Counted from the stretch's first letter, positions 2,033 to 9,998 are shown. The stretch: DNA of 64,000 nt from an uncultured Gammaproteobacteria bacterium (GCA_964362195.1 CAYICZ010000001.1:3486-67485), one strand, 5' to 3'. Notes: generated by a model not told the origin, from the letters alone. Numbers and translations are program-made.

Positions 2033-3328
2033 TTAAAGGAGTTTTTTCAGTATTTCAAGTGCCAATCGGGCATCTGCCTTACCTTTTGATAATCTCATTA
2101 CCCCACCGATTAAAACTTGAAGTGCCGCTTCCTTACCGGCTTTATAATCCTCTGCAGATTTTTTATTCTCTTCTATTGCTTGTTTAGCCAAAGCTCTCAA
2201 TTCCTCTTCGCTATCTATAACTCCCACTTTTTTGCCCTTAATTTCTTTTATTATTTGTGTTGGAAGAACAGAATTTATGTCTGGTTTTTTATTAATAATA
2301 TAGTTAGCAACATCTTGTGCCGAAACACCAGGCTCTAAAACACTTTCAAAAAATTCTGCTAATTTTTTGTCCACAGAAAGGATTTGTGCATCTGCTTTTC
2401 TAATTCCTAACTCTTCCTCAAATCTCTTACTCTTTTCCCAAGGCAACTCTGGAATTTGAGATTTTAGAATTGTCAATTGTCCATTGTCAATTGTCAATTG
2501 AGGAAGATCCGGTTCGGGAAAGTAGCGGTAATCATGAGCTTCTTCTTTGCTCCTTTGTAAATATGTGCTCTTTTGCTCCTCATCCCATCCTCTTGTTTCC
2601 TGAGAAAGTTTCTCTTCTTTCTCTATTGCGGCAATTTGGCGTTTAATTTCAAACTCAACAGCTGCCACCATAAACCTAAAACTATTTATATTTTTAAGTT
2701 CTACCCTATAATTAGGTAAGCCACTTTCCCCTTCACGCTTTACGCTTATATTAGCCTCAAGTCTCATATCCCCACGTTCCATGTCTGCATTAGAAACCCC
2801 TAAATATCGAAAAAGTTGTTGCAACTTTTTGGCATAATCTCTTATCTGCTCTACATTATTAAAATCCGGCTCAGTTACTATTTCTACCAAAGGCACACCT
2901 GATCTATTAAAGTCTACTAGAGTAATTCCATCTTTGTGGGTTAACTTACCCGTATCTTCTTCCTGATGAGCCCTATTAATTCTTATTACTTGTCCATTGT
3001 CCAATGTCAATTCTCCATTAATACACAAAGGCCATCTGTATTGAGAAATCTGATAGCCTTTAGGTAAATCCGGGTAAAAATAGTTTTTTCGCTCAAACAG
3101 AGATTTCTTGGAAATCTCACAATTTAGCGCTAAACCTATTTTTATACAATCATCTATAGCTTGCTCGTTTATATAAGGAAGAGCTCCAGGAAGGCCTAGA
3201 CATACCGAGCATGTGTGGGTATTTGGCTCTTTGCCAAAATAATCAGCAGAACACCTGCAAAACATTTTGCTTTTTGTATTCAATTCTACATGAACTTCCA
3301 ATCCAATTACAGGTTCGTATTTGTTCAT
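2033..3328 (-). CDS. gatB: Asp-tRNA(Asn)/Glu-tRNA(Gln) amidotransferase subunit B
   Basis: [32 protein letters not shown]... is a typical GatB N-terminus. The preferred start is the internal Met at 3326-3328, where its ATG overlaps the gatA stop as ATGA. Confidence 0.9.
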
Positions 3329-4683
3329 ATTTTTGGCTTCTCCTTTTTCCAATTAGTTGCTTGTTCATATGCATAGCCCACTTTTAAAATTGTTTCCTCA
3401 TCAAAATGTTTTCCCAAAATTTGTAAGCCAACCGGCAATCCATCTGAAAATCCACAAGGCACAGATAACCCTGGAATACCCGCCAGATTTGCCGAGATCG
3501 TGTAGATATCCTGCAGATACATAGTCAGGGGATCATCAATTTTCTCTCCTAAATTCCACGCTGTGGTGGGGGAGACCGGACCAACTATCACATCCACTTT
3601 TTCAAAAGCTTTTTCAAAATCCCCCTTTACTAAAGTCCTTACTTTGGCAGCTTTGGCATAGTAATCATCCCAGTAACCAGCAGACAGGGCATAGGTTCCC
3701 AGCATGATCCTTCTTTTAACCTCTGCTCCTATATTTTCTCTTCCTTTTCCATATCTAATTCCGTCAAACCTTGCCATATTAGAAGAAACCTCAGATGGAA
3801 CAATTATGTAATAAGCTGCCAGCGCATATTCACTATGCGGAAGACTTACTTCTACAATTTGCGCTCCCAAGCTTTCCAGCTTTTTGATTGCAACTTGAAC
3901 AATTTTTTTTACTTTTGGATCCAAACCTTCTCCAAAATACTCCTTTGGCACACCTACCTTTAATCCTTTAATTCCAGCCTGCAACCTCGGGGGTTGCATC
4001 GTAAACTTTTTACTCTTGCAATTTGAATCATAGCCGTCTGATCCTGAAATCCATTCCAAAACTAAAACAGCATCCTCTACTGATTTAGTTACCGGACCAA
4101 TTGAATCTAAAGATGAAGCCATAGCAATAAGCCCATATCTGGAAACCCGTCCATAACTTGTTTTTAAACCCACTACTCCACAAAGGGACGCCGGTTGTCT
4201 AATAGAACCGCCTGTATCAGAACCCAGGGAAAAAGTACAAAGATCCGCTGCTATTGCTGCTGCAGAACCGGCAGAAGACCCCCCGGGGACTTTTGTCAAA
4301 TCCCAGGGATTTTTTGTGGGACCAAATGCTGAATTTTCTCCGGATCCTCCCATAGCAAACTCATCATGATTTGTTTTCCCGATAATCGATATACCATTTT
4401 CCAATAAACGATTTATTACTGTTGCATTGTATGAAGGAATATAATTTTCTAAAACCTTTGATGCAGCAGTTGTCTTAATCCCTCTGGTGGAAATAACATC
4501 CTTGATTGCAGTTGGAATACCCTTTTTGCTCTCTAATGTTTCCAAATAGGCATTTAATTTAGGGTTAATACTTTTTATTCTTTCCAAATATGCTTTATTT
4601 AATTCTAGCTCAGAAAATTCTTTTTTTTCTAAAGCCTTTATTGTTTGAGTAAGAGTTAGAGAGGTTAAATCAGCCATTATCAA
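3325..4683 (-). CDS. gatA: Glu-tRNA(Gln) amidotransferase subunit A (amidase signature family)
   Basis: Carries the amidase signature [15 protein letters not shown] plus [12 protein letters not shown]. It sits between gatC and gatB in the order gatCAB. Confidence 0.9.
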
Positions 4684-4963
4684 ACACTCCTTTTGTTACA
4701 AAAAATCCTCTTTCTTTTTTTGAAGCATTTTGCAAAACTTCTTCTTGCGGCAAAGAGGATTCTGTCTCATCTTTCCTCATCACATTTTCCTGCCCTGAAA
4801 CATTAAAAGTAGGCTCCACATCCTTTGTATCAACAGAATTAAGTTGATCCACATATTCTAAAATTTTAGAGAGTTGCTCAGAATAAAGTTCTTCTTCTTT
4901 ATCTGAAAGGGGCAAATTAGCCAGTTTAGCAACATGCTTTACTTGATCTTTAGTTAGTCTCAT
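4670..4963 (-). CDS. gatC: Glu-tRNA(Gln) amidotransferase subunit C
   Basis: 97 aa, [41 protein letters not shown], a GatC-like protein immediately upstream of gatA. Confidence 0.8.
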
Positions 4964-5030
4964 GATATTGACATTTTAAATCTAATCCTTTATTATTATA
5001 TGGCAGTCTGGTAACAGATTGTTATCAACC

Positions 5031-5056
5031 GCCCGTTGTAAAAGACGGGCTTTTTT
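5031..5056 (+). terminator. Intrinsic-terminator-like hairpin GCCCGTTGTAAAAGACGGGC followed by a TTTTTT tract (plus-strand sense only)
   Basis: A perfect 6-bp GC-rich stem with an 8-nt loop, then a T6 tract. On the minus strand an A-tract precedes the hairpin and no U-tract follows it. The hairpin overlaps the stop of the frame-corrected NYN ORF. Confidence 0.3.
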
Positions 5057-5173
5057 ATGGCTTCTTTTCACTTCTTTCGATTTTACTCCTAATTTTGCGT
5101 AAATCCAAATAAAAATCCGCACTCTCAACTAATTCCTTAGCAACATGAAACTTAAGCGAAGCAACTACTACAG

Positions 5174-5611
5174 TTAATGAAAATCGCTATCACCGGAAAA
5201 AAGAATACAATTATCAAATAAGTCTAATCTTTTTATCACATCTACGGCAATTTCTACATCAAAATTGGCTTTGCGTAAATGTCCCCCATCTTTCCTATTT
5301 CTTATGAGCTTAAGATGCTTGGTAATAAGTTTATATCCAGTTCTTTTAAGAAATGTCAGAAAACCATCATGCTCTTTTGTATCAAATCTGGCTGTATAGA
5401 AACCTAAAAAGACTACTTTTATCTGGGTGTTTAACCATTCGGAAAGTTTTCTATAATCCACCTTGAATCCTAAATCTTTAGCAGAAAGTTCAAGATTTGC
5501 AGCATCAATAAAAATCGCAGTTTTACCTTTTAAATTTAAGTGAAATTCCTTTTTTACCACATGTTTTACTTTGTCCCGCCCCAGGTGGACTTGATCTTTA
5601 GATAATTTCAT
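5174..5611 (-). CDS. NYN/LabA-like (PIN-like) domain protein; the reading frame is interrupted at an A4/T4 homopolymer (see findings)
   Basis: Motifs TAIFIDAANL ... FDVEIAVDV ... ILFSGDSDFH are characteristic of NYN/LabA. The ORF stops right after SGDSDF, whereas the domain normally continues; the continuation is readable in the -1 frame from 5055 to 5180. Confidence 0.6.
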   Translation of the reverse strand: MKLSKDQVHLGRDKVKHVVKKEFHLNLKGKTAIFIDAANLELSAKDLGFKVDYRKLSEWLNTQIKVVFLGFYTARFDTKEHDGFLTFLKRTGYKLITKHLKLIRNRKDGGHLRKANFDVEIAVDVIKRLDLFDNCILFSGDSDFH

Positions 5612-5625
5612 ATAGGAGGATTATA

Positions 5626-6552
5626 CTAAACCTTACCTTCCATTTCGCGCAAAGCTTTAACTCTGGCCTCAATTGGAGGATGGGTGTTAAAAAGGCCGGC
5701 CAGCCACTGCTTAGCCTCGTGGCCTTTTAGCGGATTAATAATATAAAGATGAGCTGTTCCTCTGTTTGCCACTTCCAACGGTTCTCTATCTGCAGAAATT
5801 TTTTGTAAAGCACTAGCTAAACCTTGAGGATAACGGGTTAGTAATACTCCTGATGCATCTGCTAAAAATTCCCTTCTTCTGGATACTGCCAGCTGGATTA
5901 GAGTTGCCACGATTGGAGCCAGGATGGCGGCAATAATTGCCACAACCATAATTAAGCCACTGTTTTTATTATCATTATCCCGGTTTCCACCAAACCAGAG
6001 CGATCTCATGAAAAAATCAGAAAGCAAAGCGATCGTTCCCACCAGAACTGAAACCACTGCCATCACTAAAGTATCCCTATTCCCCACATGGGAAAGTTCA
6101 TGGGCAGTCACTCCTTCCAGTTCCTGTTTATTAAGCTTTTCTAAAATTCCTTTAGTAAAAGCAATGGCAGCATGCTTTGGATCACGCCCGGTGGCAAAAG
6201 CATTAGTGGCAGTGTCATCAATAATATAGATCTTTGGAGTTGGCAAACCTGCAGCTATACATAAGTTCTCCACTATTCTATAAACTTGGGGGTTATCTTT
6301 TTGTTGGATTGGTTTGGCTCCGGAAATTCCCAAAACAATCTTATCTGACCAAAAATAGGAAACAAAGTTCATAACTCCTGCCATAATCAGAGCAAATCCC
6401 ACAATGCCTAACCCCCCTACCTCACCATATCCAAACCCCTGGGCTATTACATAAATTACAGCCACAGTGAAAAGGCTGAAAAAAAACATAATCAACCACG
6501 TCTTAAAAACATTTGATCCAACATGATCCCAAGCAGTATTAATAGTAGCCAT
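5626..6552 (-). CDS. htpX: M48-family zinc metalloprotease HtpX homolog
   Basis: An N-terminal TM pair and the HEXXH motif HELSHVGNRD. The overall layout is HtpX-like. Confidence 0.8.
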   Translation of the reverse strand: MATINTAWDHVGSNVFKTWLIMFFFSLFTVAVIYVIAQGFGYGEVGGLGIVGFALIMAGVMNFVSYFWSDKIVLGISGAKPIQQKDNPQVYRIVENLCIAAGLPTPKIYIIDDTATNAFATGRDPKHAAIAFTKGILEKLNKQELEGVTAHELSHVGNRDTLVMAVVSVLVGTIALLSDFFMRSLWFGGNRDNDNKNSGLIMVVAIIAAILAPIVATLIQLAVSRRREFLADASGVLLTRYPQGLASALQKISADREPLEVANRGTAHLYIINPLKGHEAKQWLAGLFNTHPPIEARVKALREMEGKV

Positions 6553-6573
6553 AATGTGGATATTTTACCACTT

Positions 6574-6972
6574 TCACTTTTCAAACCAAAGCGGGGTTTT
6601 TGGATTAGATGTACCTTTGTAATTACAATAGATTTCGCAGTCTTTTTTAATATTTTTTATAGCTGTAAATGTAATTGTTTTATCTTTCCTGTTTATATCA
6701 TATTTGCAATTTGGATCTTTTGAGTGATTATATAAAGACCCATATCCTAAGACCAAAGCTACAAAGTCATCCATCCAAAAATAATACTCAAATAATAAAT
6801 TCCATCTTGTTTCAACTAAATCCGTAAATTCCAAAACCAGAATTGGCGCAACTTCAATAACTTCACCTTTTTTAATGTTTTTAGATGCAAATACTCCTCT
6901 TCCGGAATTTAGAATATGGGAATTACTAACGTAAACCTTAGAAGCTAACTTTAACATCAGCCTTTTCATCAT
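6574..6972 (-). CDS. SET-domain protein (putative protein lysine methyltransferase)
   Basis: [18 protein letters not shown] (a GxG SET-N motif), the pseudoknot motif YNHSKDPNC (NHSxxPN), and a C-terminal EIYCNYKG (an ELxxxY-like post-SET Tyr). The start was chosen at the internal Met to limit overlap with lemA. Confidence 0.65.
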
Positions 6973-7486
6973 CAGTGGCTTTGAAGAATTCTTCTTTTGT
7001 AAATCCAGACATAGATCCAATAAAACTTGAAGGGACTGTTTCCAGAGAATTATTTAAATCCAAAACATTGGTGTTATAAAACTGACGTGAAGCGGCAACC
7101 TTTGTTTCCGTATCTGAAAGTTCATCCTGAAGCTTGATAAAATTTTCCGAAGCCTTAAGATTTGGGTAATTTTCCGCTACGGCAAACAGAGATTTTAAAG
7201 CACCTGTTAACATATTATCCGCCTCGGCTGCTTCATGGGGATTTTTTGCACCCATTAAGGCTGTCCTGGCCTTTGTCACTTCTGTTAACACACCTTTTTC
7301 ATGCTTAACATAGCCTTTAACTGCTTCAACCAAATTCGGGATTAAAGAAGACCGTCTTTTTAGCTGAACATCAATCTGACTCCAAGCTTCCCTGACACGA
7401 TTACGAAGCGTTACCAAACTATTATAAGTAGTAAATAGCCACAGAACTAAAACTATAACAACACCAATAACAATATATATTTCCAT
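6938..7486 (-). CDS. lemA: LemA family protein
   Basis: N-terminal TM helix followed by [47 protein letters not shown], a LemA signature. Its ATG shares one nt with the upstream stop (TAATG). Confidence 0.8.
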
Positions 7487-9201
7487 TACCCTTTAATGTT
7501 AAACCATTTGGCAAATTCTGTCCAGTCCCAAGTGTTTATTATATCTTTTGCCTCAGCCCAACCACGCCTAGCAACAGACACTCCAAATTTCATATTATCC
7601 ATTTGTCCGATCTCATGTGCATCGGTATTAATTATGAACTTAACCTCATACTTTTTAGCCATTCTCACCAGATCATCCCTTAAATCCAGCCTGTTCGGAT
7701 AAGCATTAATTTCCAAAATCTTGCTATTTTTAGCAGCCAGTTTAAAAACTTGGTCCCAATTGACATCTGATGAATCCCTTTCATTAAGTAACCGGTTAGT
7801 TGGATGGGAAATAATATCAACATGAGGAGAGCTTAGCGCAGCCATTAATCTTTTGGTAATTACATCTTTCTTACCCCTATGCCCTGAATGAATACCGGCT
7901 ATTACATAATCTAAACTTTTTAAAACCTCATCAGGTACGCTCAAACTACCGTCCCCGAGAATGTCTATTTCGAGTCCATTTAGTACTCGAATACTATTTG
8001 TACTCTGTTTTAAAGATTGAATAAATTTTGTCCTCTTTTCTAAAGTAGCCTTAATTTTCTCTTTACTAAGATTAAAACTTGGAGAATGATCTGAAATTCC
8101 CACATATTCATATCCCAGTTGCTGTGCCTTCTTGATTACTTCTTTAATGGAATCTACACCCGAGCCGTGAGATGGTTTTTCTATAGGAAAATTAGAATGA
8201 AGGTGTAAATCACCTTTAATATCCTGAATATCTACTAACTTAGGCAGATTATTCGTCAGGGCAGCTTCAATTTCCCCTGTATCTTCTCTTATCTCAGGCG
8301 CAGGAACGTCCATCTTTAATAATCCATAAAGTTCTTCTTCTGTTTTGGTTTTAGTTGTTTCAGATAAAGATAATCCTTTCTTTTGAGCTTGTGTCCTTAA
8401 ATGAATATTATGGCTCTTGCTGCCTGTAAAATGCTGCAAAAGCGCTCCATAGGCCTCTGGTTTACCCACAAGTAAATCAGCTTGAATACCGCTTTGCAGA
8501 ATAACCGTGGCTTTATTTTCACCCTGGTCTAAAATCCTTATTACTGAAGGCATTTTTGCAAAATAATCAATGATCGCTTTAGGCTCATTTGAACTGACTG
8601 AGAAATCCAAATCACCAATAGTTGCCACCATTCTTCGCAAGGATCCTAAAGGATGAACCTGCAGGACATTTTTACTCTTTTTTAAATAATTCAGGATTTT
8701 ATCTGCCTGAACATAAGCATAAGGTAAGAGCATTCTATTTCCTTTTTGCCTTAATTCATGTAACCCTGACATTATATTTTGAGCTAACTTTGCGGAAAAC
8801 CCAGCTTTAACAAGCTCTCCCGACTTTAGCTTCTTTTTCAAGTCATCTAAATCTTTCACACCTAAATCAGAAATTTTTTCTGCGGTTTTTGGTCCCACTC
8901 CGGAAATATCCAGTAAATCAAAAACAACAGGCTTAATACCCTTCTCAACAGCCTCAAAGTGTTTTACTTTACCTGTTTTAAAAAGTTCATCCAAATATCC
9001 CTGAATTGAAGGTCCTAAGGCTGGCAGTTGCCCTAATTTATCTTCTTCCCATAAATCTTTAATTTCAACAGTAGATTGATCAATCGAATCTGCCGCATTT
9101 TCATAAGCCCTGATTTGAAAAATATTGCCATTTTTTTTAATAGTTAGGGCCGCAGCTACATTACGGAGTATTTTAGCAATTTTAGCATTGGATATTTCCA
9201 T
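7486..9201 (-). CDS. polX: DNA polymerase X family protein with C-terminal PHP phosphoesterase domain (PolX)
   Basis: N-terminal 8-kDa/HhH region ([29 protein letters not shown]), a pol-beta-like core, and a PHP domain (DLHLHSNFP...DGSG...GISDHSPSF). The start was moved to the Met at 9199-9201 because the longer ORF would overlap tRNA-Asp. Confidence 0.8.
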
Positions 9202-9207
9202 CTCAAG

Positions 9208-9281
9208 CGGGACCAACCGGACTTGAACCGGCGACCTTCTGATTGACAATCAGACGCTCTAACCAACTGAGCTATGATCCC
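9208..9281 (-). tRNA. tRNA-Asp (anticodon GTC)
   Basis: Minus-strand GGGATCATAGCTCAGTTGGTTAGAGCGTCTGATTGTCAATCAGAAGGTCGCCGGTTCAAGTCCGGTTGGTCCCG folds as a cloverleaf with anticodon loop TTGTCAA. The 3' CCA is not encoded. Confidence 0.8.
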
Positions 9282-9325
9282 ATACGATCCCAGACTTGCA
9301 GTATTGTAACAAAACAAATACCCCC

Positions 9326-9355
9326 TTGACAATCAAGTTAATTTAGAATAAAAAT
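9326..9355 (+). promoter_or_regulatory. Putative sigma70-like promoter for the LysM gene: TTGACA, N17-18, TAAAAT
   Basis: TTGACA at 9326-9331 and TAAAAAT at 9349-9355, about 40 nt upstream of the ATG at 9396. A second TATAAT lies at about 9376. Confidence 0.3.
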
Positions 9356-9395
9356 GAAAAGTAATTTCTTGCCCCTATAATCCTGCTCAAGCGCT

Positions 9396-9998
9396 ATGGC
9401 TAGACCAAAAAAATCGATTGCAAAAACAACTGAAAATTATTTAGCTAGAGTTGAGGGTGAAATTCAATCTAACCAGTCCAAACTAAATATGGTCTTGGGG
9501 GCTTTAATTGTTTTGGTAGTGGGAATTTTAATTTTTAATTACTTTAACAAAAGTAGACCTGACTTAGGACCTGCACAAAGTACCACTTCAACAGATCAAC
9601 AGGATGTTGCTCCCGGTAACCTTCCCGGAAAATATACTGTTAAAGAAGGAGACACCTTATTTGATATAGCCAATACATATTATAATGATGGATATCAATA
9701 TAGTGAGATTGTCAAAACAAATAATTTAACAAATCCTGATACCATAGAAACCGGACAAGTCCTGGATATACCAAAACTGGAAAATGCCATTTTAACTCCA
9801 GTTATGCAAACTACTGATACGGAGTGGGGCCTAAAAATTACCGAAAATACATACACCGTGCAAGAGGGCGATTGGTTATCAACAATTGCGGGAAGAGCTT
9901 ACGGTGATATTTATGCTTATAGCAAAATTGCCCAAGCCAACAATATCCCTGATCCTGATAACATTGAAGTCGGTACAGTTCTCACTATCCCCAGATAA
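9396..9998 (+). CDS. LysM-domain protein (two LysM repeats), N-terminal membrane anchor
   Basis: YTVKEGDTLFDIANTYYNDGYQYSEIVKTNNLTNPDTIETGQVLDIP and YTVQEGDWLSTIAGRAYGDIYAYSKIAQANNIPDPDNIEVGTVLTIP are canonical LysM domains. The N-terminus has a TM helix. Confidence 0.8.
   Translation: MARPKKSIAKTTENYLARVEGEIQSNQSKLNMVLGALIVLVVGILIFNYFNKSRPDLGPAQSTTSTDQQDVAPGNLPGKYTVKEGDTLFDIANTYYNDGYQYSEIVKTNNLTNPDTIETGQVLDIPKLENAILTPVMQTTDTEWGLKITENTYTVQEGDWLSTIAGRAYGDIYAYSKIAQANNIPDPDNIEVGTVLTIPR

Follow-up and report, generated by a model that had tools for sequence, protein, structure and literature searches.

A probable minimal SET-domain methyltransferase encoded at a variable lemA-htpX junction in a Daviesbacteria-like genome

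What does a SET-domain gene do between lemA and htpX in a bacterial genome, and on what would its product act? The question is raised by a 64,000-nt stretch of DNA deposited under the name of an uncultured Gammaproteobacteria bacterium (CAYICZ010000001.1:3486-67485; this whole stretch is referred to as the window), in which an intact open reading frame (ORF) with a Pfam SET match occupies positions 6574..6972 of the minus strand and ends with a TGA stop at 6574-6576. The answer that we consider probable is that this ORF encodes a functional stand-alone minimal SET methyltransferase, likely acting on a cytoplasmic protein of its own cell, and that it is an accessory gene of a variable junction. 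As such, it is an ordinary new entry among the known minimal prokaryotic and viral SET methyltransferases rather than a system of a new kind.

An earlier note on this DNA had assigned the ORF to the SET family and described it as a minimal domain of about 130 aa, and profile, motif and fold analyses bore out both statements. The Pfam SET model (PF00856) matched the protein with 63.4 bits (E 2.9e-17, with a cut-off of 22.4), and the match extended over residues 24-119 and the whole profile (positions 1-105 of 105). A search of the Protein Data Bank (PDB) with the single sequence retrieved vSET (1n3j, E 1.3e-11), S. pombe Set7 (5h6z, E 9e-11) and Plasmodium PFL0690c, and when a profile of 67 sequences was used instead, the E values for vSET and Set7 were 3.7e-23 and 1.3e-26, respectively. 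In agreement, the AlphaFold models, with a pLDDT of 75.7, or 80.5 with a deeper alignment, displayed the SET beta-fold, and their best Foldseek matches were vSET 3kma (target-normalised TM 0.84, 32% identity), PFL0690c and Set7. The protein has 127-132 aa, within the 115-140 aa of a stand-alone SET domain, and is devoid of the pre-SET and post-SET Cys clusters: it contains three Cys, none of them conserved among orthologues, and has no Cys-rich post-SET region. Moreover, the Pfam scan found no additional domain in it, the sole other match being below threshold and attributable to chance.

The three motifs quoted in support of the SET assignment were all found. GRGVFA, the GxG motif of the N-terminal SET region and part of the S-adenosylmethionine (SAM) pocket, lies at 6886..6903 of the minus strand, with G24-R-G26 at 6903-6895, and aligns to GYGVFA of vSET; NHSKDPN (6709..6729, minus strand), the NHSxxPN element involved in SAM binding and the pseudoknot, is a heptad identical to that of vSET; and EIYCNY (6619..6636, minus strand), whose last residue is the predicted catalytic Tyr, Y118, aligns to EITISY of vSET and EELCISY of Set7. 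The name of post-SET Tyr that had been given to the third motif was wrong, as EIYCNY is the core SET-C motif (ELxF/YDY). In an alignment of 20 orthologues, with 62-89% identity to the window protein, G26, V27, F28 and A29 were invariant, as were Y81, N82, H83 and N88 of YNHSKDPN, and E113 and Y118, and G24 was conserved in at least 90%. G26, H83, E113 and Y118 (G21, H78, E108 and Y113 in the 127-aa numbering) were also invariant in the alignment of 67 diverse homologues, down to 30% identity.

Two further segments are conserved. Residues 55-69 (6766..6810, minus strand) form a near-invariant stretch specific to the SET proteins of Candidatus Daviesbacteria that we call type A; T55, W57, N58, L60-W66 and D68 were invariant in the 20 orthologues, Y63 aligns to the lysine-channel Tyr50 of vSET, and YYFAWG replaces the motif in other SET lineages. 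The segment T55-D69 would lie where SET proteins contact their substrate, suggesting one specific, conserved target. The C-terminal motif PLWFE (6580..6594, minus strand) is conserved across the prokaryotic minimal SET family: K125, P127, L128, W129 and F130 of the K-x-P-L-W-F-E tail were invariant in the 20 orthologues, and the tail P-[LV]-W-F-[EDK] recurs in Methanosarcina and Bacillota homologues. We infer from this pattern that the tail is a C-flank, which probably closes the pocket for cofactor and lysine. The gene is under purifying selection, with a dN/dS of 0.11 in the comparison with L167, the closest sequenced relative. In the same pair, dS was 0.55 for SET (6574-6957 versus L167:4827-5210), 1.15 for lemA and 1.28 for htpX; the lower SET value hints at a more recent exchange of SET between related genomes, or is noise from only 127 codons.

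The closest known systems give an idea of what such an enzyme may do. The viral vSET (PBCV-1 A612L; 1n3j, 3kma) is likewise a stand-alone SET core of about 120 aa without pre-SET and post-SET zinc clusters, and it shares GxGVFA, the NHSKDPN heptad and E-I-x-x-x-Y with the catalytic Tyr. In contrast to the window protein, it methylates histone H3 K27, has a DDYW C-terminus where the window protein has a longer tail ending in PLWFE, and does not carry the type A insert in the region of residues 55-69. vSET is homodimeric; the modelling of the window protein covered the monomer. S. pombe Set7, the best profile match, has the same minimal architecture, but it is eukaryotic, shares 26% identity and was deposited as a histone methyltransferase, and the organism of the window is without a histone substrate. 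The SET proteins of Methanosarcina are closer, with 46-48% identity over about 108 aa, a length of 126-133 aa and a P-V-W-F-D/E tail; they differ in being archaeal, in having YYFAWG where type A has YYFWMDD, and in their neighbours, which include a membrane protein resembling permeases, LemA and HtpX being absent. MC1 proteins are not known from bacteria, and MC1 enters the comparison through M. mazei Gö1-SET, to which the kinship rests on a Methanosarcina homologue that shares a cluster at ≥90% with an M. mazei SET protein. Gö1-SET is a prokaryotic minimal enzyme that methylates the chromatin protein MC1-alpha in vitro, and this substrate is endogenous (PMC3980110).

On the pattern of the family, SAM would bind in the pocket of the GxG and NHSxxPN motifs, Y63 and Y118 would line the narrow channel through which the substrate lysine enters, and the methyl group would be transferred to the epsilon-amine of this lysine. 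The most likely substrate would be an endogenous cytoplasmic protein, because extra domains were not found and the one match to an effector model was far below threshold. Among such proteins, our leading guess, made by analogy, is a small basic DNA-binding or nucleoid protein, as Gö1-SET acts on MC1-alpha; LemA or HtpX would be an alternative guess. Of the targets suggested in the earlier note (a nucleoid-associated protein, a ribosomal protein or a host histone), the host histone is not one to which any of these results points in particular.

The position of the gene was as had been described: it lies between lemA and the M48 protease gene htpX, in the same orientation and downstream of PolX, all on the minus strand. 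lemA (6938..7486) encodes 182 aa with a Pfam LemA match of 192 bits and has its stop at 6938-6940, and htpX (5626..6552) encodes a 308-aa M48 zinc metalloprotease with a Pfam Peptidase_M48 match of 114 bits; NCBIfam HtpX models gave it up to 325 bits, under their curated cut-offs. About 90 related loci were compared, and metagenome contigs were searched from the LemA side, each locus with enough downstream sequence being scored for SET and HtpX. Every type A locus retrieved through the SET protein had the order PolX-LemA-SET-HtpX, followed by GatC, GatA and GatB. All loci with a distant LemA (≤65% identity) in which HtpX was detected had LemA-HtpX without SET, most of them with PolX upstream, and many close relatives, with LemA 74-86% identical, also had LemA directly followed by HtpX with a gap of 9-60 nt. 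These SET-less close relatives include L087, L089, L092, L094, L096, L098, L101, L104, L106 and L109, and the SET-bearing ones are L099, L100, L102, L103, L107, L108, L112-L114, L117 and L124. Judged from this comparison, PolX-LemA-HtpX-GatCAB is the ancestral order.

In a neighbour-joining tree of PolX+LemA+HtpX (1,055 columns, 200 bootstraps), the SET-bearing loci were confined to one clade. Within it, clade I (90.5% bootstrap) contained type A and type B SET loci, type B being a second lineage described below, and clade II (100% bootstrap) contained no fewer than three SET-less groups besides the window and further type A loci. When six-frame translations of 29 LemA-HtpX gaps were searched for SET remnants (hmmsearch --max, E≤10), nothing scored above 3 bits, indicating that the losses were clean or that the gene was never there. 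Since SET occurs in one clade only and the SET-less junctions hold no remnant, the comparison supports the view, already put forward in the earlier note, that SET was an insertion between LemA and HtpX genes whose pairing is conserved; clean losses would have followed. Unrelated cargo occupies this junction in other genomes: a RelB/YafQ toxin-antitoxin pair (L105:2617-3146), a PDDEXK_3 protein (L161:3578-3973), FtsX_ECD proteins (L010:3343-3948 and L172:4504-5085), a PRPP-synthase-like gene (L120:3554-4471) and a 273-aa protein without Pfam match (L111:3197-4018). It thus behaves as an insertion-tolerant, variable slot. Taken across these genomes, SET is an optional accessory gene, kept under purifying selection in some lineages and, as it appears, cleanly deleted in others.

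The type B SET (L045:3986-4405, and about 4001-4489 in each of L169-L172) is 43-47% identical to type A and 52-55% identical to the SET proteins of Methanosarcina and Levyibacteria. Its place, too, is the LemA-HtpX gap, where one or two additional small ORFs usually accompany it, and on the PolX+LemA+HtpX tree the genomes that carry it are placed among those with type A. A foreign SET that replaced the earlier copy would account for this better than simple divergence, with the reservation that trees of so short a protein are weak. A further link to LemA was found in 12 loci of Saprospirales, from Saprospiraceae and Lewinellaceae (L021-L024, L027, L029, L044, L051, L053, L056, L065 and L079; e.g. 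L023:2129-4399), where LemA is followed on one strand by two TPM-domain proteins, first a small and then a large one, and by SET; LemA was seen in 10 of them, and the contigs of the remaining two stop short of it. The spacing of the genes is tight in L023, the one locus examined in detail. The Saprospirales SET proteins form one clade, and the linkage therefore counts as a single event. In other candidate-phyla bacteria, Bacillota and Methanosarcina, no LemA was found within 4 kb of SET, nor was a LemA neighbour found in three further SET lineages that were sampled. Within the clade of the window, SET was always found between lemA and htpX. In two of the three sampled lineages, unrelated to each other (L173:1306-2691; L174:1-510 and 6062-8423), SET lies among DDE transposase genes, which is consistent with SET being mobile cargo in some genomes.

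The start of the gene and its surroundings in the window bear on how it may be expressed. In-frame ATGs occur at 6972 (132 aa), 6969 (131 aa) and 6957 (127 aa), and, called mechanically, the ORF extends at its longest to a TTG at 7020. Exact proteins of 131 and 132 aa are present as called genes in public assemblies (P0001, P0360), yet several orthologues, e.g. P0002, P0009 and P0039, use the start equivalent to 6957 (MLKLASK..., 127 aa), and for this reason the true start is, by these gene calls, uncertain within 15 nt. Whichever of the three ATGs is used, the start overlaps the 3' end of lemA by 20-35 nt, and the start of htpX (6552) is 21 nt past the SET stop. Every gene from PolX (about 9204) through gatB (2033) is on the minus strand. 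The first gene of this co-directional block, PolX, encodes a DNA polymerase/3'-5' exonuclease with a PHP domain (7486..9204, start approximate); its NCBIfam PolX score of 417.6 bits is slightly short of the cut-off of 426. The longest PolX ORF (7486-9249, minus strand, TTG at 9249) overlaps a tRNA-Asp on the same strand (9207-9281), and the real start must therefore lie further in. On the other side, an ORF of 145 aa with a NYN domain (5174..5611, Pfam NYN 64 bits) lies 14 nt 3' of htpX. It covers only positions 1-106 of the 145 of the Pfam profile and ends straight after SGDSDFH, and about 210 nt of non-coding DNA separate it from gatC; its 3' end may be truncated. In related loci, the HtpX-GatC junction contains other small genes. 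The block ends downstream with gatC-gatA-gatB (2033..4963), in the same order as in related loci.

From PolX to the NYN-domain ORF the genes are very tightly packed, with overlaps or gaps of at most 21 nt, and SET lies close enough to its neighbours that it may be co-transcribed with them. The Rfam scan of the window detected four tRNAs and nothing else. The GC content of SET is 29.7%, compared with 34.9% for the window; this is about the 10th percentile of the window and not an outlier, and composition gave no significant sign of a foreign origin. A defence or phage origin was also unsupported, as the PADLOC defence-system library gave no match for SET or LemA, and in the PHROGs phage library the only match was weak and to a family of unknown function.

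The family is large. An exhaustive HMMER scan of 1.84 billion cluster representatives yielded 3,441 clusters at 50% identity with E≤1e-3, 952 of them with E≤1e-10, and a motif scan that took one genome for each GTDB species gave at least 589 loci with a confirmed SET relative, so that the statement that SET methyltransferases are rare in bacteria was not supported. Among the matches listed were Saprospiraceae, Lewinellaceae, Bacillota, Methanosarcina, Saccharibacteria, Levyibacteriota, Woesebacteria, Woesearchaeota and Planctomycetota, along with others. The Bacillota homologues have 118-123 aa and are 45-47% identical to the window protein; in four Bacillota loci (L033, L046, L059 and L061; e.g. 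L059:341-1423), a conserved protein of about 360 aa, which by eye we take to resemble the CotH-type spore-coat kinases, precedes the SET homologue. Many of the best distant relatives (P0121-P0131 and others) have 230-320 aa and two matched stretches, which suggests tandem-duplicated SET domains, and a few relatives of 750-890 aa have four or five. Bacterial SET proteins have been reviewed for more than 10 years (PMC3980110), and the papers searched contained nothing relevant on SET in Patescibacteria or the candidate phyla radiation, or on LemA-HtpX.

The homologues with 70-80% identity are named Candidatus Daviesbacteria (Microgenomates, candidate phyla radiation), and one of them is already annotated as a SET domain-containing protein-lysine N-methyltransferase. 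The source organism of the window is Daviesbacteria-like. Some related contigs of 1.0-1.15 Mb resemble near-whole genomes, in keeping with the small genome that had been suggested. Public bin records entitled 'uncultured Gammaproteobacteria bacterium' (L008-L010, L012, L015, L017, L019 and L045) contain genes like those of Daviesbacteria or other candidate-phyla bacteria, including PolX-LemA-SET-HtpX-GatCAB at 56-80% identity to the window, and the Gammaproteobacteria names of these bins look wrong.

The alternative that survives best, unlikely as we find it, is that SET works together with the LemA/HtpX membrane module and methylates the cytoplasmic domain of LemA, HtpX or an HtpX client, its position in the operon reflecting function rather than history. 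The slot has been kept through deep divergence, with type A proteins 56-89% identical to that of the window; a type B SET occupies it in sister genomes; the overlap of the SET start with the lemA stop would permit translational coupling; and the LemA-TPM-TPM-SET arrangement of Saprospirales is independent. However, the module does not need SET, as many close relatives keep LemA-HtpX without it, most SET lineages are without LemA within 4 kb, unrelated cargo is tolerated at the same junction, and the Saprospirales cases amount to one event in one clade. In a broader form of this idea, minimal SET proteins would be recurrently recruited to LemA operons because LemA, or a partner of it, is their substrate on the cytoplasmic side of the membrane. 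The type A slot, the type B protein in that slot and the Saprospirales arrangement fit it; we regard it as quite unlikely.

It is very unlikely that SET is an effector delivered into a host where it methylates histones or chromatin proteins, in the manner of chlamydial NUE, Legionella RomA/LegAS4, BtSET and BaSET. Such a role would accord with the histone activity of vSET and with the deposited function of Set7, the closest solved relatives, and a host-attached life is generally ascribed to candidate-phyla bacteria; the known or suspected hosts of this group, however, are prokaryotes and not histone-bearing eukaryotes. The protein has no extra targeting domain or secretion module, its sole match to an effector model (NCBIfam T4SS_AnkI/LegAS4) reached 14 bits, when the cut-off is 550, the gene lies in a housekeeping block and not in a secretion or effector island, and members of this family are common among Saprospirales, Bacillota and methanogens that live freely. 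The documented bacterial SET effectors, NUE/cpnSET, RomA/LegAS4, BtSET and BaSET, are SET-domain lysine methyltransferases (PMC3980110, PMC10117894), and they differ from the window protein in being delivered to the nuclei of eukaryotes and, in some cases, in having further domains, for instance the ankyrin repeats found in LegAS4.

We give equally little credit to a small-molecule substrate, the case of the SET-fold enzyme BurB (9l4t), which S-methylates free methionine in the DMSP/malleicyprol pathway (PMC12542666). BurB did not appear in the top 60 sequence matches to the family profile and shares 16% identity with the window protein, neither DMSP/malleicyprol (bur-type) genes nor other biosynthetic partners lie near the SET gene in the window, and the Tyr residues of the lysine channel are conserved. 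Finally, it is hardly credible that the ORF is spurious or that it encodes a pseudo-enzyme, a remnant in decay or without catalytic activity: the gene is dispensable in many close relatives and its GC content is at the low end for the window, without being an outlier, but the frame is intact, the cofactor and catalytic residues are all invariant, selection is purifying and there are hundreds of intact homologues.

Some observations weigh against the preferred reading of SET as a stand-alone methyltransferase acting on an endogenous cytoplasmic protein. No nucleoid-protein gene was linked to SET in any locus seen, and that target is proposed by analogy alone; the Daviesbacteria enzymes are known here from their sequences and predicted fold; the C-terminal 13 residues, including the conserved WF, were disordered or of low confidence in both AlphaFold models; and scans for consensus promoters and terminators from 4800 to 9500 gave as many sites as the shuffled expectation, leaving gene packing as the sole ground for an operon.

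That minimal SET methyltransferases, known from so many prokaryotes, also occur in this candidate-phyla clade carries little weight in itself. The related genomes, with type A, type B or no SET in the same slot, form a natural set and a ready-made comparison, and populations of this kind could reveal, through methyl-lysine metaproteomics, what an endogenous bacterial SET enzyme methylates. The substrates are still open for nearly all SET proteins of non-pathogens (PMC10117894), and the repeated linkage to LemA offers one candidate target that is cheap to test. If recruitment to LemA were true, it would give a first hint of what the enigmatic LemA family does, and it would tie lysine methylation to bacterial membrane-protein quality control through HtpX.
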